A DNA stretch of 32,574 nt from Flavobacteriaceae bacterium UBA2000 (GTDB lineage Bacteria; Bacteroidota; Bacteroidia; Flavobacteriales; Flavobacteriaceae), in contig DDCS01000005.1 of the NCBI GenBank assembly GCA_002335345.1, positions 1 to 32,574 of the forward strand, given 5' to 3'. The notes beneath the pieces were generated by a model. It was not told the DNA's origin, did not search any database, and saw nothing but the letters and a program-made list of their open reading frames with translations. A program made the translations under genes and the position numbers. Every line of letters starts with the position of its first letter. The stretch's first letter is position 1. Shown piece after piece: positions 4,348 through 26,164 of this stretch.

Positions 4348-4386
4348 AATAGAATTAGAGCAGTTTATTTTTTTTAAACATTTTGC

Positions 4387-4414: not shown

Positions 4415-4464
4415 CCCTGTTTCTTAGCTGAACGAGTGAACCAAGTTTCTACCTTCGGGTTTTT

Positions 4465-4540
4465 GAAAAAAAGGAAGTCATATTCAAAAACTGCTTACCA
4501 GGTAAGCGACCGAAATTTAAAGCTAGCTTCCGTTTTTTTG
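4465..4540 (+). promoter_or_regulatory. structured element ending in a U7 tract (attenuator, terminator or small-RNA 3' end candidate)
   Basis: A7-GGAAG (4466-4477) pairs with CTTCC-g-T7 (4527-4539). This encloses the hairpin GCTTAC-cag-GTAAGC (4493-4507) and the palindrome AAGCTAGCTT (4520-4529). Confidence 0.3.
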
Positions 4541-4675
4541 ATTCCGCGCACCGCTCATCTTTTACGCAAAAAGATCTGGGCTTTGTTGCCAATAATTGTA
4601 TGAGTTACTTCATATTTTACTCTTAATCACAATTATTATTAACACCGCTTATTTTCGGTAAGGCAACAAAAATAA

Positions 4676-8294: not shown

Positions 8295-8708
8295 ATGAAT
8301 CCACAATTCCATTTGTCTTTGCCTTGTCGCCATTTGGAGGCGACACGTCGTTTTTTTACCGAAATTATTGGCGCCACGGTTGGGCGCCAATCAAATTTAT
8401 GGTGCGATATTAATCTTTTTGGTCATCAAATTACCTATACTCAATGTGGGGCCTTTCGATTCGACTACCCTAATTATAGTTTTGAGAAAACTATTTTGCC
8501 CTCGTTTCATTTTGGCGTGGTGTTACAACCTGCAGCCTGGAATGAACTTCATGATCGTTTAGAAAGAGAAGAATTTTTGCACACTCTGGCCACCGAGTTT
8601 TTAGCGGGTCGCGTGGGGGCACACCGCTCATTTTTTGTCAAAGATCCTAATGGATTTTTGATTGAGTTTAAGTGTTTTGATCAAGACGATGAGGTTTTTG
8701 CCCATTGA
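8295..8708 (+). CDS. VOC (glyoxalase/dioxygenase-fold) family protein
   Basis: FHLSLPCRHLEATRRFFTEIIG, FHFGVVL and FFVKDPNGFLIEFK resemble the paired beta-alpha-beta-beta-beta VOC modules. Confidence 0.55.
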   Translation: MNPQFHLSLPCRHLEATRRFFTEIIGATVGRQSNLWCDINLFGHQITYTQCGAFRFDYPNYSFEKTILPSFHFGVVLQPAAWNELHDRLEREEFLHTLATEFLAGRVGAHRSFFVKDPNGFLIEFKCFDQDDEVFAH

Positions 8709-10087: not shown

Positions 10088-10098
10088 GGCCTGTTAGT

Positions 10099-11202
10099 TT
10101 AATCCTGCCACTCGGCAATAAACAAGTTGGTATCACGTGTTCCCCCATTATTTCTATTTGAGGAAAACACTAAATACTTGCCGTCATTACTAAAGACCGG
10201 AAAGGCGTCAAAGGTTTCACTATGCGTAATACGCGTTAGATTTTTTCCGTCGGTATCAATCATATAAAGATTGAAAGGAAATCCGCGCTCAGCCTCGAAA
10301 TTACTGGAAAATAATATTTTGTCCCCGCTCGGGTGAAAAAATGGACTCCAGTTTGCATTGCCCAAACGCGTCAACTGTCGTAGGTCAGACCCGTCGGCAT
10401 TACAGATAAACAATTCCATTTCTGTAGGTTCCACGAGTCCGTCCGCCAATAAAGTCTTGTATTTTTCGATGGCTTCAGGTGTTTTTGGTCGTGAAGAACG
10501 GAAAATAATTTGGGTGCCATCGGGCGAGAAAAATGCGCCGCCATCATAACCTAGCTCATCGGTAATTTGCGTGACATTCGAGCCATCAATATTCATGGTA
10601 TACAATTCTAAATCCCCACTTCTCGTTGAGGTAAATACAATTTTGTCCCCCTTTGGCGAGACAGTGGCTTCAGCATCATAACCGGGTTCATTGGTGAGTT
10701 GCCCGGTAATATTGCCCTGTAGGTCTGCCACGAAAATATCGAAGCTATCGTAAACCGGCCAAACGTAATTACCGTTTTTTCTCAAGGGAACCTCAGGACA
10801 GGCCTCATTATCCAAATGTGTTGAAGCATAGACGAAATGAGTGTTGTCCGGTAAAAAATAACCACATGTGGTTCGTCCCTTTCCCGTTGAAATCATCGGA
10901 GGTTGATTGGCTGAAAATTCTTCATCGACATTCATGAGAAACATTTGATCGCAACCTACGCCCCAATCGGCATTGTTTGATTGAAAAAGAAGTTGCTGAT
11001 CGTCAAAACGCCAATAGGCTTCAGCATTGTCGCCTCCAAAAGTGACTTGACGCAATGATTTAAAATGCGTCTCTTCCGGATAGATGAGCAGATTATCAGG
11101 CGCAGTATTTTGCGCCGTCTCTTCTTGGGGGTCTTGCTTCTGTTGTTTTTGACCACAGGCAGCAAAAATCAAAAGCAACAATACAAGGTGTAGGTTTCTC
11201 AT
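10099..11202 (-). CDS. TolB-like PD40 beta-propeller lipoprotein
   Basis: Start at MRNLHLVLLLLIFAACGQ (lipobox). Repeated PD40-type segments SPKGDKIVFTS, SPDGTQIIFRS, HPSGDKILFSS and SNDGKYLVFSS. The longer 11316 start would run through the divergent promoter. Confidence 0.75.
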   Translation of the reverse strand: MRNLHLVLLLLIFAACGQKQQKQDPQEETAQNTAPDNLLIYPEETHFKSLRQVTFGGDNAEAYWRFDDQQLLFQSNNADWGVGCDQMFLMNVDEEFSANQPPMISTGKGRTTCGYFLPDNTHFVYASTHLDNEACPEVPLRKNGNYVWPVYDSFDIFVADLQGNITGQLTNEPGYDAEATVSPKGDKIVFTSTRSGDLELYTMNIDGSNVTQITDELGYDGGAFFSPDGTQIIFRSSRPKTPEAIEKYKTLLADGLVEPTEMELFICNADGSDLRQLTRLGNANWSPFFHPSGDKILFSSNFEAERGFPFNLYMIDTDGKNLTRITHSETFDAFPVFSNDGKYLVFSSNRNNGGTRDTNLFIAEWQD

Positions 11203-11210
11203 TTTTGGAC

Positions 11211-11218
11211 TATTTTTG
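11211..11218 (+). promoter_or_regulatory. -7 box TATTTTTG for the M28 peptidase gene
   Basis: Exact TAnnTTTG ending 15 nt before the ATG at 11234. Confidence 0.45.
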
Positions 11219-11220
11219 TG

Positions 11221-11228
11221 CAAAAATA
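11221..11228 (-). promoter_or_regulatory. -7 box TATTTTTG (minus strand) for the TolB-like/GT-C operon
   Basis: Plus-strand CAAAAATA equals an exact TAnnTTTG on the minus strand, 18 nt before the ATG at 11202. Confidence 0.45.
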
Positions 11229-11233
11229 AAGAT

Positions 11234-12472
11234 ATGCGCACAATTACAGTCCTTTTTTCCTTATTGATTTTATCTTCTTGTGGGGCCCCTTCTGTGGCTC
11301 CCGTCGACCAGCTCAAAACAGATGTAGCCTATTTGGCGTCTGATGAATTAGAGGGTAGAGAGACGGGGACAAAAGGAGAGCAACTGGCTGCTGACTATTT
11401 GGCTCAGCGTTTTGCTGCCCTGGGACTTTCCCCAAAAGGAGTTGAGGATTACCGTCAAAAATTCAGTTATAAACCCAGTACGAATCCCCATGAGCAAACC
11501 AAAGTTGATGCGCCGAGCCAAGACCAGGGGATGCCTCAAGGAATTAACGTGATTGGTTACAAAGATAATGGTGCGGATAAGACGGTGATCATCGGAGCGC
11601 ATTTCGATCATTTAGGATGGGGTGGTGAAGGGTCCCTTTATCGCGATAGCATTCCCAGTGTCCATAATGGAGCAGACGACAATGCCAGTGGCGTTGCTTT
11701 ACTTTTGTATTTGGCAGAGCGGCTCAAGGACGAGAAAAATACCCAAAGTAATTATTTGTTTATTGGATTTTCTGGTGAAGAAAAAGGTCTGTTAGGATCA
11801 AATTACTTTGCAAAAAACCCAACCATAGATTTGGCCTCTGTAAACGTGATGATCAATATGGATATGGTGGGGCGTCTGAATGAAGAAAATACTTTGGCCG
11901 TCCACGGAGTAGGGACCTCGCCAAGATTCAAACAACTCCTTTTTGCCAACAATGATTTTGGGTTGAACATTGCAGAGCATGAAAGCGGTGTTGGCCCCTC
12001 AGACCATACTTCTTTTTATTTAATGGATTTACCGGTACTTCATTTTTTTACAGGGCAGCATGAAGATTATCACAAGCCCTCAGATGACGCGGATAAAATC
12101 AACTATCCAGGATTAGAAACCATAGGACAATATATCTATGCCTTAGTCACTGATCTCGACGATGACCCCAAGTTGAGTTTCCGCAAAACGAAAAATGAGA
12201 GCGAAGAAACGCCTCGCTTTAAAGTAGGATTGGGTGTTATTCCGGATTATCTATACACGGGAACGGGAATGCGCATCGATGGCGTGAGTGAAGACAAGCC
12301 GGCACAAAAAGCGGGGCTTCAAAAAGGAGATGTTGTGGTTCGTTTAGGAGACAGTACAGTGACCGATATGATGAGTTATATGCGCGCACTGTCTGTGTTC
12401 AAGCAAGGCGATTCAACACAGGCGACTATCGAGCGCGGCGCCGAGTCTCTTGAGTTTCGGATCGATTTTTAA
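11234..12472 (+). CDS. M28-family aminopeptidase lipoprotein with C-terminal PDZ domain
   Basis: MRTITVLFSLLILSSCG lipobox. Zn-ligand motifs AHFDHLG, GADDNASGVA, GEEKGLLGS, NMDMVG and SDHTSF. PDZ-like GMRIDGVSEDKPAQKAGLQKGDVVVRLGD. Confidence 0.85.
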   Translation: MRTITVLFSLLILSSCGAPSVAPVDQLKTDVAYLASDELEGRETGTKGEQLAADYLAQRFAALGLSPKGVEDYRQKFSYKPSTNPHEQTKVDAPSQDQGMPQGINVIGYKDNGADKTVIIGAHFDHLGWGGEGSLYRDSIPSVHNGADDNASGVALLLYLAERLKDEKNTQSNYLFIGFSGEEKGLLGSNYFAKNPTIDLASVNVMINMDMVGRLNEENTLAVHGVGTSPRFKQLLFANNDFGLNIAEHESGVGPSDHTSFYLMDLPVLHFFTGQHEDYHKPSDDADKINYPGLETIGQYIYALVTDLDDDPKLSFRKTKNESEETPRFKVGLGVIPDYLYTGTGMRIDGVSEDKPAQKAGLQKGDVVVRLGDSTVTDMMSYMRALSVFKQGDSTQATIERGAESLEFRIDF

Positions 12473-12477
12473 GGCCA

Positions 12478-13482
12478 TCAATAGCGTCGACTGTAGGACA
12501 ATGAAACGTAGAGGTGGGGTTCAGCGCTGCGATTGCGGGCTGATTCGTAATGATATTTGAGGAAGACGTCATTTCGTTTGTAGCGCCAAAAAAAGCCGAC
12601 ATTAAAAAAATACATCATTCGATAAGGGGTAACCGTATAGACTGAGTTGTCACCAAGCCAATTGCCTTGTAACATGGCGTCGTGTAGCACGTAACGATAT
12701 CCAAAGCGGGTGGAAAAGAACAGTTCTGTTTCGCGTCCCAGTAATTGGCCATACGCCATACTCTTTTGAAGAGAAGATCGGCGTCCAAAATAAAATACGG
12801 CATCTTGCTCGACATAAGCGTCTTTGGTGCCCAGTGCTGCCTTTGGATTTAAGGAAAAGTAAACGGCAAAAGGCTTGGGATTCCATTGCCATTCACGGAC
12901 ATATTCGTAATAGGCATTGAGATGAAAACTATTATCTACTTGAGAAAGCCATGTGGCAATTTTAGAATCTACCGTTGCCGAATTGTGAAAGGCGCTTTGA
13001 ACAGTCTCTGAACCAGACCATGGGCCCGCAATACCAAAAACAAAATTATAACGATTCAAATGTGCTCTGCGGGTAACGGTCAGTCCATTATTAAGACCAA
13101 TAAAGCCAGCATAGGGGCGGTCTAAGAATTTTATTTTGTCGGTCAAAAGGTCTGTAGGGGTATAAATTTCCTGATACAGGACTAAGCTGTATTGACGGGT
13201 TTGTCTTTGCTCCAGTTGCTTCGGGGAAAGAGGGAGCCATCGGTGCAATCCTAAAAAACTTCCGGTAGAGTAGTAGCGATCAGTGAAATGTAAAAAATCA
13301 TTGTCTTGACGCAGTTCAAATTGATCAAAATAATCAGGGGACCACAAGGTGCTTTCTAATGAATCAATGCGTTGTGTTTGGGATTCCAGATGTTGTTCTT
13401 TCGACGCGATTAAGGTTTGCGCGTTCAGACTTGAACTGACGATCAAAAACAGCAACGCTATGTAATGAAAGATTTTGATCAT
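12478..13482 (-). CDS. LpxR-like (DUF2219) outer-membrane lipid A deacylase family protein
   Basis: Signal peptide MIKIFHYIALLFLIVSSSLNAQ. Motif RQDNDFLHFTDRYYSTGSF resembles the LpxR N-terminal NDxxxxxDRxYTxG motif. Beta-barrel-like aromatic C-terminus SLSYSRRY. Confidence 0.55.
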   Translation of the reverse strand: MIKIFHYIALLFLIVSSSLNAQTLIASKEQHLESQTQRIDSLESTLWSPDYFDQFELRQDNDFLHFTDRYYSTGSFLGLHRWLPLSPKQLEQRQTRQYSLVLYQEIYTPTDLLTDKIKFLDRPYAGFIGLNNGLTVTRRAHLNRYNFVFGIAGPWSGSETVQSAFHNSATVDSKIATWLSQVDNSFHLNAYYEYVREWQWNPKPFAVYFSLNPKAALGTKDAYVEQDAVFYFGRRSSLQKSMAYGQLLGRETELFFSTRFGYRYVLHDAMLQGNWLGDNSVYTVTPYRMMYFFNVGFFWRYKRNDVFLKYHYESARNRSAEPHLYVSLSYSRRY

Positions 13483-13489
13483 GCCCCGT

Positions 13490-14992
13490 TCAATGCTTAA
13501 ACCTGTCAAAAATACTTTTTATTAAAAGATAACCGAAACCCAAGATACAGAGTATATGAAATGGGGCTAAACCATAATCACCAGTCGTACCCATTTTTGT
13601 GGCCAGAAATAAGCCAAAAAGCGCATAAAGCATCAGAAATAGTTCCAAAACAACAGGGGCTATTGCCCCCCCCGCGGAATAATTTGCCCGAGTCTTGACC
13701 CGATCGCCCCGCTTTGCGTTAACCGTATTGACTTTTGGCGTGCGTACAAATGGAGTGATTACCCCAAGGTGTCCTTGAATAACAGCAATGGCGTTGTTTG
13801 CTGAAAGGCCAATGGCGAGGGTGAAAAAGACAATGAAATCAAAAAAGGCCTGCGCCCAAGATAGGTTGCGCTGTGTATTAAACATTTTATAGGCTCCGGT
13901 ATAGGACCAGAGGAACAGTAGTGTGGTTAGGCCAAAAGATTGGAATAAATAAAAAATCCAGGACCATTGTGGATGACTGTTTTTAATCCATAATAGGGGT
14001 AAACTCAGGACAATAAGGATCAGAACCAAAAAAAATATCGAGCTGCTAAACAAATGGGCCGTGCCAAAAACTTTTTCTTTAAGGCTCAGGTCTTTTTTAG
14101 CCCATAAGCGACGCCAAAGTTGCCTGAAATTTTGTGCCCCACCTTTATTCCATCTGAATTGTTGACTTCGTGCGGCTTGAACGCTCTGGGGTAATTGTGC
14201 CGGCGTAATAATGTCTGGGCGATACAGGATCCGCCATCCTTTGAGTTGGGCGCGATAGCTCAGATCAAGGTCTTCGGTTAGCGTCGTGCCGGACCAATTT
14301 CCAGCCTCTTCAATACAGGATTTGCGCCAGATTCCGGCAGTCCCATTAAAATTCATGAATACGCCATGGGCTTGTCGTCCGATTTGCTCAAGACCAAAGT
14401 GTAAATCCAGGGCAAAGGCCTGAACCCGTGTCAAAATTGAATGCGCTCGGTTGAGGTGTCCCCAGCGGGTTTGCACCACGCCAATTTTTGGATCCTTGAA
14501 GTAGGGCATACTGCGCAAGAGCCAATCGCTTTGCGGCAGAAAATCCGCGTCAAAAATGGCGATAAACTCACCCGTAGCCGCTGCTAAACCCTCTTTGAGG
14601 GCGCCTGCTTTAAATCCAGTTCTATGTCTTCGGTGTAGGTGTCTGATTGGGATTCCTTTTGCATTGAGCTTAGAAACGAGCGCGCCCACCATGGCGGTCG
14701 TCTGGTCTGTTGAATCATCGAGCACCTGAATTTCGAGACGATCCATTGGATATTGTATTGCCGCCACTTGTCTTATGAGCGCTTGGATCACATTTTGCTC
14801 ATTGTAAATGGGCAGTTGAATCGTTACTCTAGGTAAGTCGTCTTTTAGACTCAGGGGGGGCAATTGGTTTTTTGTGAATAGGTTTCTCGCCCCTTTAAAT
14901 TTGTGAAAAAGTAGGACCTGCGTTACGGCAAAGAGCAATACGATGAACAGGCAAAGCGCATAAATAAGGACGGTGAGAAACTCCAAGATCAT
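13490..14992 (-). CDS. membrane-embedded family-2 glycosyltransferase (CslA/MgdA/cellulose-synthase-like)
   Basis: N-terminal TM segment, VTIQLPIYNE, QVLDDSTD, FDADF, TEDLDLSYR and the QQFRWNKG (QxxRW) motif. Several C-terminal TM helices. Confidence 0.8.
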   Translation of the reverse strand: MILEFLTVLIYALCLFIVLLFAVTQVLLFHKFKGARNLFTKNQLPPLSLKDDLPRVTIQLPIYNEQNVIQALIRQVAAIQYPMDRLEIQVLDDSTDQTTAMVGALVSKLNAKGIPIRHLHRRHRTGFKAGALKEGLAAATGEFIAIFDADFLPQSDWLLRSMPYFKDPKIGVVQTRWGHLNRAHSILTRVQAFALDLHFGLEQIGRQAHGVFMNFNGTAGIWRKSCIEEAGNWSGTTLTEDLDLSYRAQLKGWRILYRPDIITPAQLPQSVQAARSQQFRWNKGGAQNFRQLWRRLWAKKDLSLKEKVFGTAHLFSSSIFFLVLILIVLSLPLLWIKNSHPQWSWIFYLFQSFGLTTLLFLWSYTGAYKMFNTQRNLSWAQAFFDFIVFFTLAIGLSANNAIAVIQGHLGVITPFVRTPKVNTVNAKRGDRVKTRANYSAGGAIAPVVLELFLMLYALFGLFLATKMGTTGDYGLAPFHILCILGFGYLLIKSIFDRFKH

Positions 14993-15699
14993 TTGAAAAC
15001 GGCGTGTTTGGCAATCCAGCCAATAATTTTCACTCCGGCAAAGATAACACCTTTTAAAGTCCCTGAAACTTTTGATACCCCGATGCGATTTCTGTAAGGT
15101 ACCGGAATTTCTATATAATTGAGATTCATATTCAGGGCCTTGAGTTGCATTTCGATCGTCCAGCCATAAGTCATGTCGGACATATTCATCGCCATGAGTT
15201 GTTCATAGCCTATGGCGCGAAAGGGCCCTAGGTCTGTGTAACGCGCGCCAAATAAATGACGCATAAGCCAAGTGGCCAGCCAATTGCCAAAGCGTTGAGG
15301 TGGGGTCATCGCTCCAGCTTCCATCAATTTAGAGTCTCTTGAACCGATGACAAGATCCATATTTTTTTCTTCAATCGGGGCGACCAAAGCATCGAGGTAT
15401 TCAGGATAGTCGCTGTAGTCGCCATCAAGAAATACAATGATCTCCGGCGTTTGTTCAGGGTGTTTCAGCGCTCTTGATTTGATGTGTTTCAGGGCACGCA
15501 TACAAGCATATCCATATCCTCGACGAGATTCATTGAGGACCAAAGCACCATGTTTTTTGGCTACGGCTGCGGTGTTGTCCGAAGAGCCGTTGTCGACAAC
15601 AATGACTTCTGTAGCTGATTTTGGGAGGTCATCCAGCACATGTCCGATGGCCCCAGCTTCATTGATAGCAGGAATAATTACCGTGATTTTTGCCCTCAA
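14989..15699 (-). CDS. family-2 glycosyltransferase, polyprenyl-phosphate-sugar-synthase (DPM1/GtrB)-like
   Basis: ITVIIPAINEAGAIG, VIVVDNGSSDNT, FLDGDYSD. The stop overlaps the next start (ATGA at 14989-14992). Confidence 0.8.
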   Translation of the reverse strand: MRAKITVIIPAINEAGAIGHVLDDLPKSATEVIVVDNGSSDNTAAVAKKHGALVLNESRRGYGYACMRALKHIKSRALKHPEQTPEIIVFLDGDYSDYPEYLDALVAPIEEKNMDLVIGSRDSKLMEAGAMTPPQRFGNWLATWLMRHLFGARYTDLGPFRAIGYEQLMAMNMSDMTYGWTIEMQLKALNMNLNYIEIPVPYRNRIGVSKVSGTLKGVIFAGVKIIGWIAKHAVFK

Positions 15700-15707: not shown

Positions 15708-16121
15708 CTATTTGCCCTCTAGTTCGATTTGCTGCTGAGGCACAATATAGGTGTCAAAATACCAAGAGGAAAATTCTTCTAGCCCGATAAACAATAGAAT
15801 TCCAAGAATAATAATCAAAGCCCCTACAAGCAGTAAATTCAGTTTTTTGCGCTTAGGATCGATAGAGCATTGATCTTGAGTTGTTTTGTATTTGTAGATC
15901 CCATAGGCGCCAATGAGGACAGCAACCACGCGAAGCAAGATCGCGCCAGTACCCAATGAGCCGTCTTCTTGGTAAAAAAAGTCTGCAAAAGAAATGGCGA
16001 CAACACCGCCCATAAGCCCAAGCATAAATAAAACGGCAGGGGCGACACAACACAAGATCCCTGCCAAAGCAGACATGAGTCCATATTTGAGCGTCCATTT
16101 AAAAATACTGGGTGTTTTCAT
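15708..16121 (-). CDS. small 4-TM membrane protein with MerT-like vicinal-cysteine helix
   Basis: The first TM segment reads ALAGILCCVAPAVLFMLGLMGG. Compare the MerT helix ASACCLGPLVLIALGFSG, recalled from memory. Three further hydrophobic segments follow. Confidence 0.55.
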   Translation of the reverse strand: MKTPSIFKWTLKYGLMSALAGILCCVAPAVLFMLGLMGGVVAISFADFFYQEDGSLGTGAILLRVVAVLIGAYGIYKYKTTQDQCSIDPKRKKLNLLLVGALIIILGILLFIGLEEFSSWYFDTYIVPQQQIELEGK

Positions 16122-16143: not shown

Positions 16144-16890
16144 TTACTCATTTTTTGGGGTATTGGGCCACACATTTCTTTGGTAGTAGGCCCACAGTTG
16201 TGCGGGGCTATGTCCACGTCGGTAATTGACTTGGATCACCCAAAAGTGCCATTGTAATTGCCAAAGCCCACGAGATTTATATTTGCGGGCTGAACTGATC
16301 ACTTTTTGGGGCAAGACGCAAAAGCGGGTCTGGGCATATAAACGGTCAATTAAATTTAAGTCTTCACAGATAATGTAGTCTTCTGAATAGCCCCCGATTT
16401 GGTCGAAAAGCGTTTTACGCACAAAAAGACTTTGGTCCCCGCCGCGACAGAATTTCCAATTAAAGCGGGTACCCCAGCCAGCTATTTTCAGCCACCAATG
16501 CGGCAGGTCAAATGCCATGCGAAAACAACCTGCTTGGCCGTCTTTGTGCTCCTGATTTATAATGTGTTGATCGTAGTTTTCTGGGGGCAGCGTGTCTGCG
16601 TGAATAAAATAGAGGAGCTTAGCGCGGGCGTGTGACGCACCCAAATTCATTTGGCGGGCTCGGCCAGCGGGGCCTTGAAGCAGCGTGACATTTTTCTGAG
16701 CGTTCTTTTTCTGCCAATGCTTCACCGAGCTTTGGGTTTGGTCTGAACTGCCCCCATCGACGATGATAACCTCTATGCGATGGGGATAAACGGCACGCTG
16801 AAATAGTGTTTCAATGGTCTGTAGAATATGGTTCGCCTCATTTAAGGTCGGGACGACTACAGAGAGATTAAGTGGGTTGCCTTGATTCAC
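16144..16890 (-). CDS. small soluble GT2 glycosyltransferase (TIGR04283-type, arsenosugar-cluster-associated)
   Basis: LSVVVPTLNEANHI, VIIVDGGSSDQT, FIHADTLPP. Its position in the ArsM/ArsS cluster matches the family's reported context. Confidence 0.7.
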   Translation of the reverse strand: MNQGNPLNLSVVVPTLNEANHILQTIETLFQRAVYPHRIEVIIVDGGSSDQTQSSVKHWQKKNAQKNVTLLQGPAGRARQMNLGASHARAKLLYFIHADTLPPENYDQHIINQEHKDGQAGCFRMAFDLPHWWLKIAGWGTRFNWKFCRGGDQSLFVRKTLFDQIGGYSEDYIICEDLNLIDRLYAQTRFCVLPQKVISSARKYKSRGLWQLQWHFWVIQVNYRRGHSPAQLWAYYQRNVWPNTPKNE

Positions 16891-16895: not shown

Positions 16896-17699
16896 TTAAT
16901 TATTTAGCGACCAATCATAGGACAAATAACTGATGGCTACATTTGGGGCAAAGTTGTGCTTGGTGTATTGATTGATCAGTTGAATCAAGTCTTCAGTTGG
17001 GCCAAAATCACGCTTAAACCACAGAAAAATACGCGAGAGATTCAGGCGTTTTTCGGTGTAATTATTTTTTGTTGAATCGTTAAAAAAGACCGATGCAGCG
17101 CGATTGAGTTGTCGGTCAATTTGATCCCCCCGGTAGGCTTCATTAGACAGAATAGGACATGATTTTGAGGCGCAATTAATGGCGAAATGAATACGCGGCT
17201 CTTCAAACTTTCTCAAAATTTCGTGTTCTATGTCATCCAAAGTCCAGGCGTTATTTTTGCTTTTGAGCACCGTCTGCTTCCATGGTCGACTCAGGTCTTT
17301 AATGCTGCTTAAAGGCAGGTTATCGCAAATAAGTTTAACGGTGCAGGCGTTATAGGCATTAATCCAAAAGGCCAATTGCTCCTCTTTTGAACGAATTTTA
17401 ATTCCTTCAGCCTCTTTTGACAGTGCGCTGATATATCGGTTAAGGTCGCTGATATCACCTTGAAAGCTTGAGTAATCCACACGGCCTTGATCACTGACAT
17501 GACGTTTTAAAAGATGATCCCATAATTGGTGATCGATTCCTTCTTGTCCCAATTTTATTTGCCCCGCGCTGCCCTGCGTCATGTTCTGCGCGCTTGTTTT
17601 TGCGCTTGTTTGCGTTCTGATCTGCGCGCTTGTCTGGAGGTTGGTCTGGGCGTTGAGACCAAAGCCTATGAGTAAAATGAGCCAAAAATATTTCATCAC
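16896..17699 (-). CDS. exported DUF547-domain protein
   Basis: Signal peptide MMKYFWLILLIGFGLNAQ, a low-complexity QTSA(Q/K) linker, then DUF547 hallmarks FWINAYNACTV and EPRIHFAINCASKSCP. Confidence 0.7.
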   Translation of the reverse strand: MMKYFWLILLIGFGLNAQTNLQTSAQIRTQTSAKTSAQNMTQGSAGQIKLGQEGIDHQLWDHLLKRHVSDQGRVDYSSFQGDISDLNRYISALSKEAEGIKIRSKEEQLAFWINAYNACTVKLICDNLPLSSIKDLSRPWKQTVLKSKNNAWTLDDIEHEILRKFEEPRIHFAINCASKSCPILSNEAYRGDQIDRQLNRAASVFFNDSTKNNYTEKRLNLSRIFLWFKRDFGPTEDLIQLINQYTKHNFAPNVAISYLSYDWSLNN

Positions 17700-17728: not shown

Positions 17729-18697
17729 TTAACAACACCCGCCCCCATCATAGTGATAGGTCGATGGACTAATAAAAATATCGTTTCTGTTCAACGCAGC
17801 CAGCGCGGCGGCAGTTTTATCGCATATAGCCAAAGGTTGATTCGGCATCAGCACATGGCCTTTTTTATCGTCAAAATAGGGTTGGTCACCATAGTAAATG
17901 GCGGCTTTACCCGTAAAAATGCAAGGGCCATCATCGGGCATCGGGTCTTTGATCGCGGCCACTTCTATGGATTCAATATAGATTAATTCCTCTGTGGGGT
18001 AATGGCCTGGATCCAGAATACGATAAGGTTTTCTAGCGCGTATTTCAATAGTGCCAAAGCCGGCATCGGTAAGGGCCTTTACGTATTGATCGATGGGTAA
18101 ACTCCCACTAAGACACAAGGCCCGTAGTCGCTCGTCTTCTCTGAGTGTTACATTCATTTCTTGTTCGCAGGTAGGGTCACTCATGACCAGGCGTCCGTGT
18201 GGTTTGAGGACTCTGTACATTTCGGCAACAGCCTTTTTAAGTTCTTGATCTTTGAAGATGTTAAAAAGACAATTTTGGGCCGCGACATCCACGCTTTCAT
18301 TCTCAAGGGGAAGATTTAGGGCATCTCCCTTGCGCAATGAGACAAAATCTGACGAAAACCAGGGGTTTAGAGCTTCTGCTTCTTTGAAATTTGCCTGGGA
18401 AGCTTCAAGCATTTCATCGACGACATCTACGCCTATGACCTTTCCTTTTTCTCTTGAGAAATAAGCAAATTGCAGCAGCTCCATTCCGCCGCCGACACCG
18501 ACATAGAGAATTTTGGGATTACGGCTTAAATCGCGCGGATGTACCGTTGAGCCACAACCGTAATTCATTTCCTGCATGATTTTTGGGATTTTAAGTCCTG
18601 GCAATTCCCATATGGGGTTGGTGGTACAGCACAACCCAATATCTGGAGTTTCTGCTGCTTTTTTATAGACGTCTTTGGTGGTATCTAAATAACTCAT
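17729..18697 (-). CDS. arsM: arsenite S-adenosylmethionine methyltransferase
   Basis: N-terminal Cys pair DIGLCCTTNP, NYGCGS, SAM motif ILYVGVGGGMEL, a later conserved Cys in LRALCLSGS, and C-terminal GGGCC. Confidence 0.8.
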   Translation of the reverse strand: MSYLDTTKDVYKKAAETPDIGLCCTTNPIWELPGLKIPKIMQEMNYGCGSTVHPRDLSRNPKILYVGVGGGMELLQFAYFSREKGKVIGVDVVDEMLEASQANFKEAEALNPWFSSDFVSLRKGDALNLPLENESVDVAAQNCLFNIFKDQELKKAVAEMYRVLKPHGRLVMSDPTCEQEMNVTLREDERLRALCLSGSLPIDQYVKALTDAGFGTIEIRARKPYRILDPGHYPTEELIYIESIEVAAIKDPMPDDGPCIFTGKAAIYYGDQPYFDDKKGHVLMPNQPLAICDKTAAALAALNRNDIFISPSTYHYDGGGCC

Positions 18698-19524
18698 AAG
18701 GATAAACGCTCAATTAAAATTTTAAATAATTCAACCATTTTGGGTTCAGCTTTTTTTGCACTGGCGATAATGTCACTGATGTCCACGGGTGCCAAATGGT
18801 CTGGATCGCACTCATCTGTTAATACCGAAATGGCCGCCACGGGTAAGGATAAATGATTGGCGACTATAATCTCAGGAACAGTACTCATGCCTACGGCATC
18901 TCCTCCGATAAGTCTTAAATAGCGATACTCGGCCTTAGTTTCGAGTTCAGGTCCCCGCACGCCAATATAAACCCCTTGATGAAGATCTATGCCACGCTCT
19001 TGGGCAATGGCGCGCAAAGAGGCGCACATTTCTAGATCATATGGTGTGTTGAGGTCTACAAATCGTTCCCCCATTTGATCGACCCCTTTAAAAGCCAATG
19101 GGGAACAACCTTGCAGATTAATGTGATCGGTTATGAGCATCATTTCCCCTTTTTTATAATTGAGATTTAGAGCGCCAGAGGCATTGCTCACCAATAGGCG
19201 CTTTACGCCAAGGGCACGCATGACCCGAATGGGAAAAGTCACCTCTTCTGGAGTATATCCTTCGTAAAGATGAAATCTACCCTGCATTACGATTACTTTT
19301 TTTCCGCCAAGAATGCCATAAATAAGCTTTCCTTGATGAAATTCCACGGTAGCGGTTGGAAAATGGGGTATGGCCGAATAATGTGCTTCTTGCTCTATAG
19401 TGACGGCATCGACCAGTGCCCCGAGGCCGGTGCCAAGCACAATGCCAATTTCGGGTTGGTCAAATCCGCGTGCTTCGAGATAACTCTTGGCCTGTTCTAC
19501 CTGTTGTATGAGAATGGGTTTCAT
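18694..19524 (-). CDS. trimeric-type purine nucleoside phosphorylase (PNP/MTAP family)
   Basis: GIVLGTGLG, VMQGRFHLYEGY, LLVSNASGALN, GPELETKAEYR, DAVGMSTVPE. ATGA overlaps at both ends. Confidence 0.9.
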   Translation of the reverse strand: MKPILIQQVEQAKSYLEARGFDQPEIGIVLGTGLGALVDAVTIEQEAHYSAIPHFPTATVEFHQGKLIYGILGGKKVIVMQGRFHLYEGYTPEEVTFPIRVMRALGVKRLLVSNASGALNLNYKKGEMMLITDHINLQGCSPLAFKGVDQMGERFVDLNTPYDLEMCASLRAIAQERGIDLHQGVYIGVRGPELETKAEYRYLRLIGGDAVGMSTVPEIIVANHLSLPVAAISVLTDECDPDHLAPVDISDIIASAKKAEPKMVELFKILIERLSL

Positions 19525-20132
19525 TTTATTAAAGGATTAAATACTTCTTCAGGATAAAGATCTTCAAATTGATCTATATCGTTTTTAATAGGGAGAAGAA
19601 ATGGTGAATCTGGTTTCAAATTAATTAAAGTATCTGTTAAAACTGTGGCACTCCCCCAAATTTTATTTTCAAACAAATCGGGATTCATCTGGGTCATCCC
19701 GATGAGATAATATCCACCATCTCGGGCAGGCCCGATAACGGTTTTATGCGTGTCTAGGCGGTCAAAGGCCTGAACAATTAATTCTGGGGTCAGGTCGTAT
19801 AAATCGCTACCGATGACAATCGCTTTTTTTGCTCCGTTGGTCAATGCAGTGTTTATGGCGTTAGCCATGCGCGCCCCCAGATCATCGCCCTGCTGCACAT
19901 CCTTATCGAACACTTTGGGGTCAAAAGCATCTTGGGGCTCTAAGTAATTGCTGTAAAAAACGACTCGTTTGGCGGGAACCTCAGCGGTAATCTTTGCCGT
20001 GTGCTCCAGCAAAAATTTGTAAACCGCTAAAGCTTTTTCTGGGCCAATACGCGCCGCTAGGCGCGTTTTACACTGCCCTAAAATTGGATTTTTACAAAAG
20101 ATAATGAGATGATTTTCTCTGGTTTGGTTCAT
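19521..20132 (-). CDS. DUF2064/TIGR04282-type transferase (nucleotidyl-/glycosyltransferase-like)
   Basis: LIIFCKNPILGQCKTRLA, an N-terminal motif typical of DUF2064. GSDLYDLT and GPARDGGYYLIG. Confidence 0.7.
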   Translation of the reverse strand: MNQTRENHLIIFCKNPILGQCKTRLAARIGPEKALAVYKFLLEHTAKITAEVPAKRVVFYSNYLEPQDAFDPKVFDKDVQQGDDLGARMANAINTALTNGAKKAIVIGSDLYDLTPELIVQAFDRLDTHKTVIGPARDGGYYLIGMTQMNPDLFENKIWGSATVLTDTLINLKPDSPFLLPIKNDIDQFEDLYPEEVFNPLIK

Positions 20133-20171: not shown

Positions 20172-20672
20172 TCAAAAGGTAGGGGTGCCTTTTTCGACAT
20201 ATCGTGCCCAGTTTTTGTCATAGCCATGTAGGGCAAGTGTTGGTTTATTTTGTGAATCAACCACGGGATGACTTTGATTATACCATTGAAAAATACCCCC
20301 GTAAAGGTTGAATATCTTGTAATAACCTAACTGTTTGAGTTTGACACCAATTTGTTCTGATCGAACCCCGATAGAGCAATAAACCACTATTGGAGTGGAC
20401 GGCGCTATATTTAATGCATTGATTTTATGGGCATCAAATTCGTCGTAACCCACAAACCGTGCCCCTTGGATATGGGACACTTCATATTCTTTTAGTGCCC
20501 GTGTGTCCAAAAATAGAACACTGTCTTTTTGATGCCATTGGAATGCCGCATCGGTATTTATATAGGGAATTATACCGGTATTATAGCGCTTTAAGGCTTT
20601 GTCAATCGGGCTTTGACTCCAGGCACTTAGCGTGATCATGATTATGCCAAATAAGGGAATAAGTCTTTTCAT
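20172..20672 (-). CDS. exported single-domain rhodanese
   Basis: I chose the start MKRLIPLFGIIMITLSAWSQ (signal peptide), which forms an ATGA overlap with the arsS stop. Active-site loop VVYCSIGVRS (CX4R). Confidence 0.8.
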   Translation of the reverse strand: MKRLIPLFGIIMITLSAWSQSPIDKALKRYNTGIIPYINTDAAFQWHQKDSVLFLDTRALKEYEVSHIQGARFVGYDEFDAHKINALNIAPSTPIVVYCSIGVRSEQIGVKLKQLGYYKIFNLYGGIFQWYNQSHPVVDSQNKPTLALHGYDKNWARYVEKGTPTF

Positions 20673-21736
20673 ATGACGGCCCCTTGACAACTACTGCCGG
20701 CCCCTGCGGTACAGCCATAACAGTGTTGTGAAATTTTAATGAGACGCCCCTCCATCAGGTCGTTTTGGTACTGAGCAATATGTTGTCGGGCATCATTAAT
20801 CGGCATTTGTAGCATTTGATTGAAATCACAATCAAAAAGATAGCCGTCCCATGAAACGGACAAGGTGTTGAGGCACATTACCGCCCTGGCTGCTGCGGGA
20901 TTAAACGATTCCACGAGCGTCCACATATAGTCTTCATAATTGTCTGAAGCAATGAGATAATCTAGAAATCTAGAAATGGGTAAATTGGTTAGGGCAAAAA
21001 GTCCATTAAATTTTATGTTAAAGCTTTGATCCAAGCGCCTTTTGAAATCTTGGCAGAGGGCTTCTTGGTCTCCCGGTAAAAAAGCCCCACTTGGGTTGTA
21101 AACTAAATCCAGTGTCAGGTTGCTCCCCGTTAGGCCATAACCTACATCATTAAGCATTTTTAGGGCCTTAATAGAATCCTCAAACACTCCTGAACCGCGC
21201 TGACGATCTGTTTTTTCTTTGGTCCAATGGGGCATGCTGCTCACGACATGTACCTGGTGTTGCGCAAAGAATTCAGGTAAATCGTGGTATTTTTTATTGG
21301 CCACAATTATGGTCAGGTTACTGCGTACGATTATTTCATTCACCCCACGTGCTTTGGCCTGGGTAACAAACCACCGGAAGTTCGGATTCATCTCGGGGGC
21401 CCCACCGGTGAGGTCTAAAGTTTTTACGCCACTGGATTCCATGACCTTGAGGCAGTGCTCCATGGTTTCTTGTGTCATGATTTCTTTTCGGTCTGGACCC
21501 GCATCCACATGACAATGCGCACAAACCTGATTACACATATAACCCAGGTTCACTTGAAGGATATCCAGCCCCGTTGTTTTTAAGGGAGCACCCAGACTTT
21601 GCTGTATTTTTTGGCCGAATTTTGGTGCGTCCCCATTGGAAAAAATACCCTCCTCTAAAATTTTAAGCTGTCGCTCTGTTTGGGCCAGCGGACTTTGTCT
21701 TTTGTGTAAAGATTGTAATACTTTGGTTTGGCTCAT
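20669..21736 (-). CDS. arsS: radical SAM enzyme, arsenosugar-biosynthesis ArsS type
   Basis: 4Fe-4S/SAM motif CNQVCAHC, LDLTGGAPEMNP, and a Cys-rich C-terminus CLNTLSVSWDGYLFDCDFN...HCYGCTAGAGSSCQGA. Confidence 0.8.
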   Translation of the reverse strand: MSQTKVLQSLHKRQSPLAQTERQLKILEEGIFSNGDAPKFGQKIQQSLGAPLKTTGLDILQVNLGYMCNQVCAHCHVDAGPDRKEIMTQETMEHCLKVMESSGVKTLDLTGGAPEMNPNFRWFVTQAKARGVNEIIVRSNLTIIVANKKYHDLPEFFAQHQVHVVSSMPHWTKEKTDRQRGSGVFEDSIKALKMLNDVGYGLTGSNLTLDLVYNPSGAFLPGDQEALCQDFKRRLDQSFNIKFNGLFALTNLPISRFLDYLIASDNYEDYMWTLVESFNPAAARAVMCLNTLSVSWDGYLFDCDFNQMLQMPINDARQHIAQYQNDLMEGRLIKISQHCYGCTAGAGSSCQGAVI

Positions 21737-21742: not shown

Positions 21743-22072
21743 TTATGAATCCAATTTATTGACCTTATTCATCATCATTACCCCATGGACCAGCGTAGCA
21801 CCACTTTTTATAGCAGCCCCAACATGGACGGCCTCCATCATTTCTTCTTTGGTAATCCCGCGCTCTAATCCGTCTTTGGTATAAGCATCAATACAATAAG
21901 GGCACATCTCCGTGTGGGCAACAGCAAGGGCGATCAGGGACTTCTCTCTCGGGGTCAAAGCCCCTTCTTTAAAAACACTGTTGTAGTAGTCAAAAAATTT
22001 TTCTCCCAGGGATTCACTCCACTCGGTAATGCGGCCAAATTTTCTGAGATCTTTTGGGTCGTAATAAGACAT
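21743..22072 (-). CDS. AhpD/carboxymuconolactone-decarboxylase-like CxxC protein (arsenosugar-cluster-associated peroxidase-like)
   Basis: 109 aa with LTPREKSLIALAVAHTEMCPYCIDAYT. First gene of the operon, 6 nt upstream of arsS. Confidence 0.75.
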   Translation of the reverse strand: MSYYDPKDLRKFGRITEWSESLGEKFFDYYNSVFKEGALTPREKSLIALAVAHTEMCPYCIDAYTKDGLERGITKEEMMEAVHVGAAIKSGATLVHGVMMMNKVNKLDS

Positions 22073-22201: not shown

Positions 22202-23851
22202 TTATCTAAAATAAATATAGATGGCGGCAACAAGCAAGACAATCAGCGCCCCAATGGGTTTGGTATAGGCCCAGGGTTGAATGTCAACTTGTTTTGTGTA
22301 CTCAATAGTATAGGCTTCTTTACGTGGATAAAACTTCCCAATAAGGAGCATAATAAGCACATTTAACACAAAGAGTATGGCCATGACATCGAGATAATGC
22401 AATCCAAAATACCCTTGTGATTCAATGATAGAAAGTGTGTTCGGGTCTGTAATGCCCTCTGCCTTAGCGGCGGCCAAAGCGTCACTTACAAAATGAGGTT
22501 TTAAAAAGAACTGGCTCAAAATATAAAGTAAAGAACCCGAGAGTAAGCCTATTTTTGCTGCGATGGCAGGAACTCTTTTGGTTAGATAGCCCACCACGAT
22601 AATGGTTAAAATTGGAATCGAGTAGATGCCGTTAATTTCCTGAAGATAGTCGAATAGGCTTCCAGCATTGGCAATAAATGGGGCAATTACCATAGCGCCA
22701 ATGGCCAAAACGACACCAAACATTTTTCCTTTATTGACCACGGTGGCTTCATCGGCCTCAGGGTTGATGTGTTGCTTATAAATGTCGATCCCAAACAAAG
22801 TCACTGAGCTGTTAAGGACACTATTGAAGGAACTTAAGATGGCCCCAAAGATAACTGCTGCAAAGAATCCAAGTAGGGCTGGGGGGAGCACTGCAGAAAC
22901 GAGTTGAGGATAGGCTTGATCCACCGCAGAAAGGTTGGGAAACATATGATAAGCAATGATTCCTGGAAGCACGACAATGATAGGGCCAAGAATCTTAATA
23001 AAGGAGCCCAAAAGCAAACCCTTTTGGCCTTCTTCTAGGTTTTTAGCGCCCAGTGCTCGCTGTATAATTTGTTGGTTTGTTCCCCAATAAAAAAGCTGAA
23101 CCAACATCATTCCCGTAAAAATGGTGTAAAATGGAACCGGATCTGTGCGCTCGCCCATAGATTTTAATTTTTCAGGATGTTCTGCCGCCAAAACGGATAG
23201 TCCATTCATAAGGCTTCCATCCCCAATAGCGATAAGGCCCAAAACAGGGATGAGTAATCCGCCAATTAACAGACCAATTGCATTTATCGTGTCAGACACC
23301 GCTACAGCCTTTAGTCCGCCAAACACCGCATAGATGGAGCCAATAAGACCGATACCCCAAACGCAGAGATAAATTGCTTGAGCATTGGACACCCCAAAGG
23401 CCGCTGGTATGTCAAACATTCCACTTATGGCCACTGAGCCAGAGTATAAAATCACAGGAAGTAACACAACGACATAACCCGTCAAAAACAGGGCAGAGGT
23501 GATGGTTTTAGTGGTGGTATCAAATCGATTGGCCAAAAATTGGGGTACGGTGGTGAGCCCGCCTTTGAGATAGCGCGGCAATAAAAACATTGCCGTAACC
23601 ACCATGGCAATGGCCGCTAAACTTTCCCAGGCCATAACGGAGAGACCACTTTCGTATGCCGATCCATTGAGCCCCACGATTTGTTCGGTCGATAAATTGG
23701 TCAGGAGTAAAGAACCCGCGATAACCCCAGCGGTAAGACTGCGCCCCCCTAAAAAATAGCCATCTGCACTTTTTTCATTTGTTTTCCTCGAGGCGAAATA
23801 GGCAATAATGGCTACTAAGGCGGTAAAAGCGATAAATGAAATGATGGTCAT
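22202..23851 (-). CDS. sodium:solute symporter (SSS/SGLT family)
   Basis: 549 aa with about 13-14 TM segments. N-terminal DGYFLGGRSLTAGVIAGSLLLTNLSTEQIVGLNG is typical of SGLT-type transporters. Confidence 0.85.
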   Translation of the reverse strand: MTIISFIAFTALVAIIAYFASRKTNEKSADGYFLGGRSLTAGVIAGSLLLTNLSTEQIVGLNGSAYESGLSVMAWESLAAIAMVVTAMFLLPRYLKGGLTTVPQFLANRFDTTTKTITSALFLTGYVVVLLPVILYSGSVAISGMFDIPAAFGVSNAQAIYLCVWGIGLIGSIYAVFGGLKAVAVSDTINAIGLLIGGLLIPVLGLIAIGDGSLMNGLSVLAAEHPEKLKSMGERTDPVPFYTIFTGMMLVQLFYWGTNQQIIQRALGAKNLEEGQKGLLLGSFIKILGPIIVVLPGIIAYHMFPNLSAVDQAYPQLVSAVLPPALLGFFAAVIFGAILSSFNSVLNSSVTLFGIDIYKQHINPEADEATVVNKGKMFGVVLAIGAMVIAPFIANAGSLFDYLQEINGIYSIPILTIIVVGYLTKRVPAIAAKIGLLSGSLLYILSQFFLKPHFVSDALAAAKAEGITDPNTLSIIESQGYFGLHYLDVMAILFVLNVLIMLLIGKFYPRKEAYTIEYTKQVDIQPWAYTKPIGALIVLLVAAIYIYFR

Positions 23852-23881
23852 CGGTTGTGTTTTTCTAGTTAGTTGTTAAAG

Positions 23882-24850
23882 TTAGTCATTTAAAATGTCT
23901 GATATAACATCGGCGTAATCTGGGATGCGCCCAACATTTTGAAGTTTTATGGCGGCCATTTTTAGTGCCGAGGATAAACATTTCTCTGGCTTTTGGCCTT
24001 TGATATGTCCATAAAGAAATCCACTCCAAAAGGCATCACCCGCCCCAGTGGCATCCATTATTTTTTCGACTTTAAGCGCGGAGAGTTGAATCACCTCATG
24101 GCCTGCAACACTGAGTTTGGCTCCATCCTTGCCTAAAGTAAAACAAATCGTCTGTGCGCCCAATCCATGAAGGTATTCAAAAACCTCCTGGTGACTTAAT
24201 CCCGGCCCCAGCAAACGATCCACGTCATCTTGGCTAATTTTGACCAAGGCCCCCCATTGGCAATAGCGCGTAATGGCTTCAATGGCTTCATTCCGGTTTG
24301 GCCAAATTTTTTCACTGTAATTCACGTCAATGCTGAGTTGTACTCCTCGTTGCGCCGCACGCTCCGCTGCCGAAAGTATTGTTTCTCTAGCAGGATCTCG
24401 GCTTAAGGCAAAACAGGTGGTATGACAAATTTTACTTGAATTCAGTAAGGCGTCAGGGATTTGATTGGGATAAATTTCTTTATCCGCACCGCGATAGGCG
24501 ATAAATTCCGGGGTTCCTGCGGTGTTGTTGATAAAAATAACGGTACTCGGTGTCTGCGGGGCACGATACATATACTGGGTATCGATCCCAGCCTCTTCAA
24601 ACCGACTGAGCATATAGTCTCCAAAACCATCATCACCAACACTAGAGATCATCGCCACATTCATGCCTAATCGCGCCATGTTCATGGCGACATTGGTTGG
24701 TGACCCCCCGAGATATCGATGATAATCTTTAGTTTCACTAATGGGAGCTTCATTTTGTGTTCCAATAAAATCGATTAAGGTCTCCCCGATACAGATTAAA
24801 TCCGTTGAAAGATTTTTACTGTTATTCATAACTGATTGTGCATTCATCAA
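23882..24850 (-). CDS. PfkB-family sugar kinase (fructokinase-like)
   Basis: LICIGETLIDFIG, YLGGSPTNVAMNMARLG and DATGAGDAFWSGFLYG (PfkB signature). Confidence 0.8.
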   Translation of the reverse strand: MMNAQSVMNNSKNLSTDLICIGETLIDFIGTQNEAPISETKDYHRYLGGSPTNVAMNMARLGMNVAMISSVGDDGFGDYMLSRFEEAGIDTQYMYRAPQTPSTVIFINNTAGTPEFIAYRGADKEIYPNQIPDALLNSSKICHTTCFALSRDPARETILSAAERAAQRGVQLSIDVNYSEKIWPNRNEAIEAITRYCQWGALVKISQDDVDRLLGPGLSHQEVFEYLHGLGAQTICFTLGKDGAKLSVAGHEVIQLSALKVEKIMDATGAGDAFWSGFLYGHIKGQKPEKCLSSALKMAAIKLQNVGRIPDYADVISDILND

Positions 24851-24865
24851 AAATTACGATATCGT

Positions 24866-26164
24866 TTATTTTGCTTTTGGCTTAAGGCGGAGCGCTAAAA
24901 TTGCAGCAATTATAAAGAAAACACCCCCAAAGAGGATGGCATTTATGGCACTACCGCCCAAAAGGTGTTTCATAATTGGTCCAAAAGTGACGGTTTCAAT
25001 ACCCATAGGAATAACAATCATCATATTTAATATGCCCATGTAAACCCCCCGGCGTTCTTGTGGCACTATTTTAGAAACCATACTGTAAGGAATCCCCATC
25101 ATAGCAGCCCAACCTATTCCAAACAAAATCATTGGAAAGAGAACAGTTATCGGGTCCGTGATAAATGGAATAACCAGAAGCGCTGCTCCCGTGCCAAATA
25201 AACTTCCCGCATAGGTTTTCTTTCCGCCAAAACGCATGGTAATGGGCACGAGTAAAAGGGCGACAATGATCGTAGTGATGTTATAAGTGGTACTCATTTT
25301 GGCCGCTTGTCCAAGCGCTTGAGCCCCATCATAACCCATTGATTCCTGGAAAAGTGGGGTAATGTATTGCCAATAAATAAAGAGTGCATACCATTGAAAA
25401 AGATAAACCGCCGAGAGTTGCCACATAAATTTTGGCATAAGTTTTACGGCAGAGGCAATTTCATTAAAAGGGGTTTGGAGTCTTGTCAAAAAGGGTTCCT
25501 TGCGCTCGGCTTCTAGAGTCTTAAGTTCTTGCGCTGTCGGAGGTATTTCTGGCGTTTTTAAAACGGACCATAAAATAGTGACCACCGACAAAATGGCGCC
25601 CAAGAAGAACGAGTAATAGAGCCACGTTGGTATGCCTTGGGTTGTGTCTCCTGAAGGATCAGCAAACCAATCTTGAAAAATGAAAATAGAAGCATTGGCC
25701 AAAACAATCCCCGCGCCAACAAATAGACTCTGCATTTGATAGCCCATGGTGAGCTGTTTTTCAGGCAACTTATCCCCGACAAAGGCGCGGTATGGCTCCA
25801 TCGCCATATTGTTTCCTACATCCAGAATCCAGAGCAATCCCACGGCGAACCATAGACTAGGGCTGTAGGGAAAGGCAAAAAGACACAGACTGCCAATGAC
25901 TGCCCCAATAAGAAAATACGGTTTTCTGCGGCCCCACTTAGGAGACCAGGTTTTGTCAGAAAGCGCCCCTATGATGGGTTGAACCAGCAGTCCCGTCACT
26001 GGACCAGCGAGATTTAAAATGGGCAGTTCTTCGGGTAAGGCCCCGAGAAATGAAAATATTGGATTGATTGCTGTTTGCTGTAATCCGAAGCTAAATTGAA
26101 TGCCTAAGAAGCCGACATTCATGTTCCAGATGTCCCAGAACGAGAGTTTTGGTTTTTTGGTCAT
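24866..26164 (-). CDS. MFS transporter, GPH/SLC45 (sucrose-type) family
   Basis: 12-TM profile with GALSDKTWSPKWGRRKPYF, similar to the conserved loop of glycoside-pentoside-hexuronide/SLC45 carriers. Confidence 0.75.
   Translation of the reverse strand: MTKKPKLSFWDIWNMNVGFLGIQFSFGLQQTAINPIFSFLGALPEELPILNLAGPVTGLLVQPIIGALSDKTWSPKWGRRKPYFLIGAVIGSLCLFAFPYSPSLWFAVGLLWILDVGNNMAMEPYRAFVGDKLPEKQLTMGYQMQSLFVGAGIVLANASIFIFQDWFADPSGDTTQGIPTWLYYSFFLGAILSVVTILWSVLKTPEIPPTAQELKTLEAERKEPFLTRLQTPFNEIASAVKLMPKFMWQLSAVYLFQWYALFIYWQYITPLFQESMGYDGAQALGQAAKMSTTYNITTIIVALLLVPITMRFGGKKTYAGSLFGTGAALLVIPFITDPITVLFPMILFGIGWAAMMGIPYSMVSKIVPQERRGVYMGILNMMIVIPMGIETVTFGPIMKHLLGGSAINAILFGGVFFIIAAILALRLKPKAK

Follow-up and report, generated by a model that had tools for sequence, protein, structure and literature searches.

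The purine nucleoside phosphorylase (PNP) encoded within the arsenic gene cluster of Flavobacteriaceae bacterium UBA2000 is, judged from its sequence and modelled fold, probably a PNP-I-derived phosphorylase of 5'-substituted adenosines, which would cleave DDMAA, the ArsS product, and would also salvage SAM by-products. As such, it would be a dual-use enzyme rather than an arsenic-exclusive one, and a functional analogue of MTA phosphorylase (MTAP) for adenosines without a 5'-OH. The original prediction of an adenine-nucleoside phosphorylase, probably acting on the ArsS product, had been drawn from Asp237. This conclusion gained support from the 5' pocket, from a sister clade and from an MTAP found in the same slot of other clusters, but not from the cited residue.

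Gene cluster and family of the PNP

The window, i.e. the whole 32,574-nucleotide stretch that was analysed, comes from a genome of 1.73 Mb that is 73.6% complete. The PNP gene (276 aa; 18694..19524, on the minus strand like all the cluster genes below) was joined to its neighbours by ATGA overlaps on both sides, just as had been read earlier: the PNP start codon ATG shares 19521-19524 with the TGA of the TIGR04282/DUF2064 gene, and its stop codon TGA shares 18694-18697 with the arsM ATG. The TIGR04282 protein (19521..20132; 195.9 bits, cut-off 134) is a putative nucleotidyl- or glycosyltransferase, weakly CofC-like (E 7e-8) and matching PDB 3CGX, the structure of a putative NDP-sugar transferase (E 2e-22). 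The arsM gene (17729..18697; NF038099, 564.7 bits, cut-off 400) encodes an arsenosugar-type arsenite methyltransferase. The cluster also contains a rhodanese-like protein (20172..20690; NF045521, 171.3 bits, cut-off 145), the radical SAM DDMAA synthase ArsS (20669..21736; TIGR04167, 431.7 bits, cut-off 300) and an AhpD-like CxxC protein associated with arsS (21743..22072; TIGR04169, 183.7 bits, cut-off 120). On the other side, a DUF547 protein (16896..17699; PF04784), present in 67 of 80 related loci, lies between arsM and a TIGR04283 family-2 glycosyltransferase (GT2; 16144..16890; 230.8 bits, cut-off 182), a candidate for the aglycone-attaching step. Hence arsS, arsM, TIGR04169, TIGR04282 and TIGR04283 of the NCBIfam arsenosugar set all exceeded their cut-offs in one cluster. 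The promoter and terminator scan gave results at chance level.

Several other genes of the window were recorded. A 137-aa membrane protein with a Cys-Cys pair (15708-16121, minus strand), located between TIGR04283 and two GT2 genes, had no Pfam or NCBIfam match and was found in 7 of the 80 related loci and in L205; its likeness to MerT/MerF-type metal(loid) transporters was judged by eye only. The two GT2 genes, together with an LpxR-like outer-membrane protein and a GT87 (8681-15699), come after the arsenic genes in the same orientation, and the GT2 pair was linked in just 12-19 of the 80 loci. Upstream of the cluster, a sodium:solute symporter, a PfkB kinase and an MFS transporter (22202-26164, minus strand; 16 of 80 loci) probably form a sugar-uptake-like unit with no tie to the arsenic cluster. 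Farther away, a PAP2-superfamily protein with a vanadium-haloperoxidase-like C-terminal motif lies beside ASPIC/UnbV FG-GAP repeat proteins (27338-32555, minus strand). The plus-strand genes at 351-7962 comprise those of the mevalonate pathway, a UbiA prenyltransferase, and an arginine decarboxylase, an agmatinase and a deoxyhypusine-synthase-like gene; the last three represent a homospermidine route, which yields no MTA.

The PNP scored above the PNP-I cut-offs (PRK08202, 329 versus 218 bits; TIGR01697, 279.5 versus 197.1 bits) and has the NP-I alpha/beta fold, with invariant phosphate- and ribose-site residues Arg83, His85, Tyr87, Glu88, Met213 and Ser214. Its AlphaFold model (pLDDT 92) matched 4LNA, 4M1E, 8SWT and human PNP at TM 0.94-0.96, human PNP at TM 0.94 and an rmsd of 1.6 A. 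The score fell narrowly below the cut-off of the inosine/guanosine-specific TIGR01700 (284.9 versus 293.35 bits) and far below that of the MTA phosphorylase TIGR01694 (90.5 versus 274.85 bits). Of the inosine/guanosine-type residues, Glu201 is present as Glu195, but Asn243 and His257 are absent, the PNP having Asp237 and Ile249 instead. Only the first aspartate of the MTAP T-D-[YF]-D motif is present, D-E-C replacing D-Y-D. The PNP therefore belongs to PNP-I, and neither to its inosine/guanosine-specific group nor to MTAP.

Asp237 and the 5' pocket

Residues 230-242 of the PNP (AAISVLTDECDPD) include Asp237, the codon of which is GAT at 18814..18816 on the minus strand, as previously reported. 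The alignment to human PNP (PDB 2A0X, an H257F mutant) had no gaps from Tyr186 to Cys239 and paired Asp237 with Asn243, Glu195 with Glu201 and Leu194 with Phe200 (Leu194-Glu195, 18940..18945), so that the equivalence of Asp237 to Asn243 in the original prediction stands. In further gap-free alignments, Asp237 corresponded to the Asn in E. coli XapA and to the leading Asp in the VTDYD motif of MTAP. Ile249 (codon 18778..18780) lies past a 2-residue human insertion, equals human position 257 and starts the C-terminal helix in the AlphaFold model, like His257 in human PNP. Since Asp237 was invariant in the 80 closest homologs, it is neither a chance nor a sequencing change.

An Asp at this position permits a 6-aminopurine. 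The Asn-to-Asp mutagenesis cited in the original prediction is confirmed by K. lactis PNP, where the equivalent N256D gained adenosine (kcat/Km 2.2e6) and kept inosine (1.6e5) (PMC5074518). Because Glu195 is retained, and because N256D accepts both adenosine and inosine, the Asp signifies that adenine is allowed, not that only adenine is. Furthermore, an Asp occupied the Asn243 position in 20 of 20 lpxK- or porin-linked housekeeping PNPs, in 13 of 13 sequences of a yggS/divIVA/ileS-linked clade and in the arsenic-linked clade, in loci from across the phylum. This Asp is shared by the top three PDB matches, including the Bacteroides fragilis PNP (8SWT), whose crystal structure contains the inosine-type analogue Immucillin-H. 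In the tree, Asp was ancestral to the whole non-Asn group; by this reconstruction, it is ancestral to most Bacteroidota PNP-I enzymes. Asp237 was rejected as a marker of arsenic specialisation, being ancestral to 72 of the 79 tree sequences and present in housekeeping copies. A role of Cys239 in binding arsenic was not supported, since the divIVA/mtnA clade, which mostly occurs without arsS, has this Cys invariantly as well.

Variation at this position was seen elsewhere. Related PNPs of one family (f21; L158-L161) have Ser-Asn for Thr-Asp and have apparently reverted to Asn, and the P. gingivalis enzyme 4NS1 also has Asn. A genome without arsS or TIGR04282 (G147, L122:4376-6029) contains a tandem duplicate of this PNP clade, with one Asp copy and one Asn copy, which offers a natural pair for the specificity switch.

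The 5' pocket was more informative. In human PNP, His257 binds the ribose 5'-OH (PMC4308819). A His was present at this position in 7 of 7 Asn-type PNPs and in 19 of 20 lpxK/porin-linked Asp-type PNPs, whereas the arsenic-linked sequences had Ile or Val (22 of 22), the closest homologs Ile (80 of 80), and the divIVA clade a hydrophobic residue (12 of 13). The Phe200 position was Leu in the arsenic-linked, closest-homolog and divIVA groups. The loss of His257 is the change that would be expected for substrates without a 5'-OH, and we infer that it marks the 5'-substituted-adenosine type and is a better signature than the Asp. Outside the Flavobacteriaceae, four arsS-positive genomes (G044, G056, G103 and G171) had no copy in the cluster, but carried an Asp-type, His257-less PNP elsewhere.

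Compared with the trimeric PNP-I enzymes human PNP, PunA and XapA, the operon PNP has the common fold, 40% identity, the phosphate- and ribose-site residues and Glu195, but differs in having Asp for Asn243, Ile for His257 and Leu for Phe200. The structures 4LNA from Spirosoma linguale and 4M1E from Planctomyces limnophilus, which matched best in both sequence and fold (44-48% identity, TM 0.94-0.96), resemble it in the Asp and the Leu194 equivalent and have Leu where human PNP has His257; they differ in having TDLC where the operon PNP has TDEC. The B. fragilis PNP, a member of the lpxK-type housekeeping clade with 47% identity, also has the Asp, but keeps Phe200 and His257, falls in a separate part of the tree and had no arsenic genes nearby in the loci examined. 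MTAP (MtnP) shares with the operon PNP the Asp at the base-specificity position and, by sequence alignment, probably a hydrophobic residue at the 5' pocket, where Ile249 falls on Val or Ala of two MTAPs. It differs in identity (approximately 26%) and in that the operon PNP lacks the second Asp of TDYD and keeps Glu201. The adenine-releasing phosphorolysis of a 5'-substituted adenosine by MTAP would be a further likeness; the operon PNP probably works like MTAP though it is not a member of that family, and would be a convergent solution. Within the scope of the literature search, no paper was found on a PNP-I acting as MTAP in Bacteroidota, nor on the specificity of the B. fragilis PNP.

The operon PNP could instead be a broad-specificity housekeeping enzyme for adenosine, inosine and guanosine, which replaced the lpxK-linked copy in marine Flavobacteriaceae and stays in the operon by ancestry only. 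The search for a second PNP or DeoD, suggested with the original prediction, gave a negative answer, as the operon PNP was the only PF01048 (PNP/UDP) gene found in the source genome (73.6% complete, in which MTAP, MtnN and MtnA were not found either); the operon-type PNP was also the only PF01048 member in a congener (G005, 93% complete), and most Flavobacteriaceae genomes have a single PNP. These counts, the retained Glu195 and the inosine-type analogue bound by the Asp-bearing B. fragilis PNP favour such a role. However, His257 and Phe200, both kept by housekeeping PNPs, are lost here; the linkage to TIGR04282 extends across several families and orders; an MTAP occupies the same slot in Proteobacteria; and three genomes (G221, G119 and G035) carry this PNP together with an lpxK- or porin-linked one. 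We therefore consider a housekeeping role improbable.

A sister clade adjacent to mtnA

In the tree, the arsenic-linked clade (32 rows; support 100/99) and the yggS/divIVA-linked clade (100/99) were joined at 100/94. In 18 of 21 loci of family f31, which we take to be green sulfur bacteria, the sister-clade PNP, with the same Asp, Leu and Ile, preceded a same-strand mtnA by 28-202 bases (the loci concerned being L226-L227, L229-L245 and L146; for example, L227:3366-5269). When 45 genomes of non-Bacteroidia classes were searched, with controls as expected, MtnA was found in 37, MTAP in 0 of 45 and MtnK in 0 of 37. One genome (G042, 100% complete) has MtnA and just two PF01048 genes, one for an Asn-type and one for a sister-type PNP. 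MtnA needs methylthioribose-1-phosphate or 5-deoxyribose-1-phosphate, the source of which is either MTAP or MtnN plus MtnK (PMC13474568, PMC6302742). The simplest reading of the mtnA adjacency without MTAP or MtnK is therefore that the sister clade supplies the sugar phosphate, and it is likely to be an MTA/5'-deoxyadenosine phosphorylase. One mtnA-adjacent sister protein passed the cut-off of the 'inosine and guanosine-specific' TIGR01700 and is probably misannotated. An MTA/5'-deoxyadenosine phosphorylase is missing from many Bacteroidota that have mtnA, and the sister clade, currently annotated as plain PNP, is a candidate for this role.

Since DDMAA is an adenosine with a 5'-dimethylarsinoyl in place of the methylthio group, an MTAP-like enzyme would be pre-adapted to it. 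With its greater bulk and polarity compared with methylthio, the As(V) oxide group counts against DDMAA as a substrate.

The PNP is also used outside the arsenic pathway. In seven genomes (99-100% complete), the ortholog stood alone, with neither arsS nor TIGR04282, and these copies were nested at several places in the clade. They rule out strict dedication to the arsenic pathway and imply an arsenic-independent use, most likely the recovery of adenine from adenosine or SAM by-products. The Glu238-Cys239 pair was kept in 1 of the 7 stand-alone copies versus 78 of the 80 close homologs, a weak hint of changed constraint.

Salvage of the SAM by-products 5'-deoxyadenosine and MTA might even be the only function, the PNP being kept in the operon to clear inhibitors of ArsS and ArsM and to recover adenine, while DDMAA is deadenylated otherwise or transferred directly. 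The tie of the sister clade to mtnA, the persistence of copies without arsenic genes and the requirement of a nucleosidase or phosphorylase to scavenge 5'-deoxyadenosine (PMC6302742) are in line with this. Moreover, MtnN was absent from 55 of the 56 Flavobacteriaceae genomes searched, so that by-product salvage alone could explain the presence of the PNP. Nevertheless, ArsS should release little 5'-deoxyadenosine, because the deoxyadenosyl radical ends up in the product (PMC13598754). The tightest partner of the PNP is TIGR04282 rather than arsS, and the PNP stays with TIGR04282 when arsS is absent or elsewhere. No MtnA to use the salvaged sugar phosphate was found in four genomes (the source genome, its congener, G151 and G200), and G221, which has MtnN as well as the lpxK-type PNP, still keeps the cluster copy. 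Salvage as the only function is accordingly considered unlikely, though less so than the housekeeping role, and cleavage of DDMAA combined with salvage is preferred.

Linkage, distribution and the proposed pathway

The position of the PNP in other arsS clusters was strongly conserved, as the original prediction needed. Among the 80 related loci, it was adjacent to TIGR04282 in 76 and accompanied by arsM in 73 and arsS in 61, and among the 61 full-length ones by TIGR04282 in 60, arsM in 54 and arsS in 49; the kin are not independent, and these linkage counts, like the residue counts, overstate. The linkage of PNP and TIGR04282 reached other families and orders. In 79 Flavobacteriaceae genomes, one per genus, arsS was present in 64, all 64 of which had this PNP type, as assigned by score to the query with the motif checked in a subset and one copy partial. 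Of the 15 genomes without arsS, 8 keep this PNP, 4 have the housekeeping type only and 3 have none; the 7 genomes without this PNP all lack arsS. The TIGR04282-PNP-DUF547 genes were also seen in near-complete genomes without arsS (G012, L200:4000-10500; L168; L201), with TIGR04283 and rhodanese genes as well in G012, and this downstream module may act there on an imported or different substrate. Two records titled Candidatus Rokubacteria and Rhodobacteraceae (L034 and L108) hold typical flavobacterial loci and are probably mislabelled or mis-binned.

In Burkholderia thailandensis, Acinetobacter portensis and Cupriavidus, arsS clusters on plasmids carry a true MTAP among TIGR04282, TIGR04283 and DUF547, and in Cupriavidus the MTAP directly follows TIGR04282, in the same slot as the operon PNP. 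Judged by gene family, an adenine-releasing phosphorylase rather than a hydrolase was thus recruited a second time, independently; a metagenome scan gave 5 loci, and the comparison rests on the three plasmid lineages. The plasmid arsS-MTAP clusters (L175, L176) are mobile arsenosugar-type clusters; they occurred in 48 Burkholderia records, mostly B. glumae, and the name of the A. portensis plasmid indicates NDM-1. A nearby phosphorylase is not universal, which counts against the proposed role: none was found within 9-10 kb of arsS on two plasmids, one of Pseudanabaena and one of Hymenobacter, or in four gammaproteobacterial loci, some of them truncated.

Arsenolysis, in which arsenate replaces phosphate and the resulting ribose-1-arsenate is reduced by thiols, could feed arsenite to ArsM with the help of the CxxC and rhodanese neighbours. 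Any PNP can use arsenate, thiol reduction of ribose-1-arsenate has been described for mammalian PNP, and thiol-redox proteins flank the PNP gene. However, any resident phosphorylase would serve, and the changed 5' pocket, the choice of MTAP in Proteobacteria and the coupling to TIGR04282 are left unexplained, which makes arsenolysis a very improbable function.

Phosphorolysis of DDMAA, the preferred function, would fit into the pathway as follows. ArsM methylates arsenite, and ArsS adenosylates dimethylarsenite to DDMAA, building the deoxyadenosyl radical into the product (PMC13598754). This ArsM-ArsS pathway was described in Synechocystis (Xue 2019 and Cheng 2021, as cited in PMC8552651 and PMC12159101); orthologs of both genes exceeded the NCBIfam cut-offs here, together with TIGR04169, TIGR04282 and TIGR04283, but the cyanobacterial locus on the Pseudanabaena plasmid differs in having no phosphorylase near arsM-arsS. 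A preprint of May 2026 states that adenine 'can then be removed' after DDMAA, in a passage that names no enzyme (bioRxiv 10.64898/2026.04.29.721666). The accessible literature named none for the steps beyond DDMAA, and the search, in which primary papers were partly out of reach, found nothing joining arsenosugar, ArsS and a phosphorylase. In the flavobacterial cluster, ArsM would produce dimethylarsenite, which ArsS would couple with the 5'-deoxyadenosyl radical to form DDMAA; both steps are known from other bacteria. By phosphorolysis of DDMAA, either as such or reduced to As(III), the PNP would then release adenine and 5-dimethylarsinoyl-5-deoxy-alpha-ribose-1-phosphate. With less certainty, the overlapping TIGR04282 protein might activate this dimethylarsinoyl-ribose-1-phosphate, and the TIGR04283 GT2 might transfer the sugar with inversion to give a beta-riboside arsenosugar. 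Natural arsenosugars are beta-ribosides, and the GT2 mechanism is inverting. The PNP would very probably also clear MTA, 5'-deoxyadenosine or adenosine, because alternative enzymes for this task are absent from most of these genomes.

A wider proposal, for which we put the chances at slightly below even, is that a PNP-I clade labelled plain PNP became an MTA/5'-deoxyadenosine phosphorylase by convergence and takes the place of the absent MTAP in several Bacteroidota classes, that the flavobacterial branch of this clade supplies the missing DDMAA phosphorylase, and that arsenosugars arise via dimethylarsinoyl-ribose-1-phosphate and a TIGR04282-made nucleotide-sugar in most marine Flavobacteriaceae genera. 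NCBIfam already has names for the gene set, and the class of enzyme is a familiar one. ArsM and ArsS are the only arsenosugar enzymes characterised in the accessible literature. A candidate adenine-removal enzyme that is soluble, easily assayed and recruited twice independently, from PNP-I and from MTAP, makes the next pathway step directly testable and reduces a long-open step to a one-enzyme assay. If the proposal is true, the later chemistry would be that of a sugar-1-phosphate and not of a free sugar. Arsenosugars are major organoarsenicals in marine food webs, and, with the gene set in 64 of the 79 sampled Flavobacteriaceae genera, these heterotrophs would then be a large, overlooked source of them.
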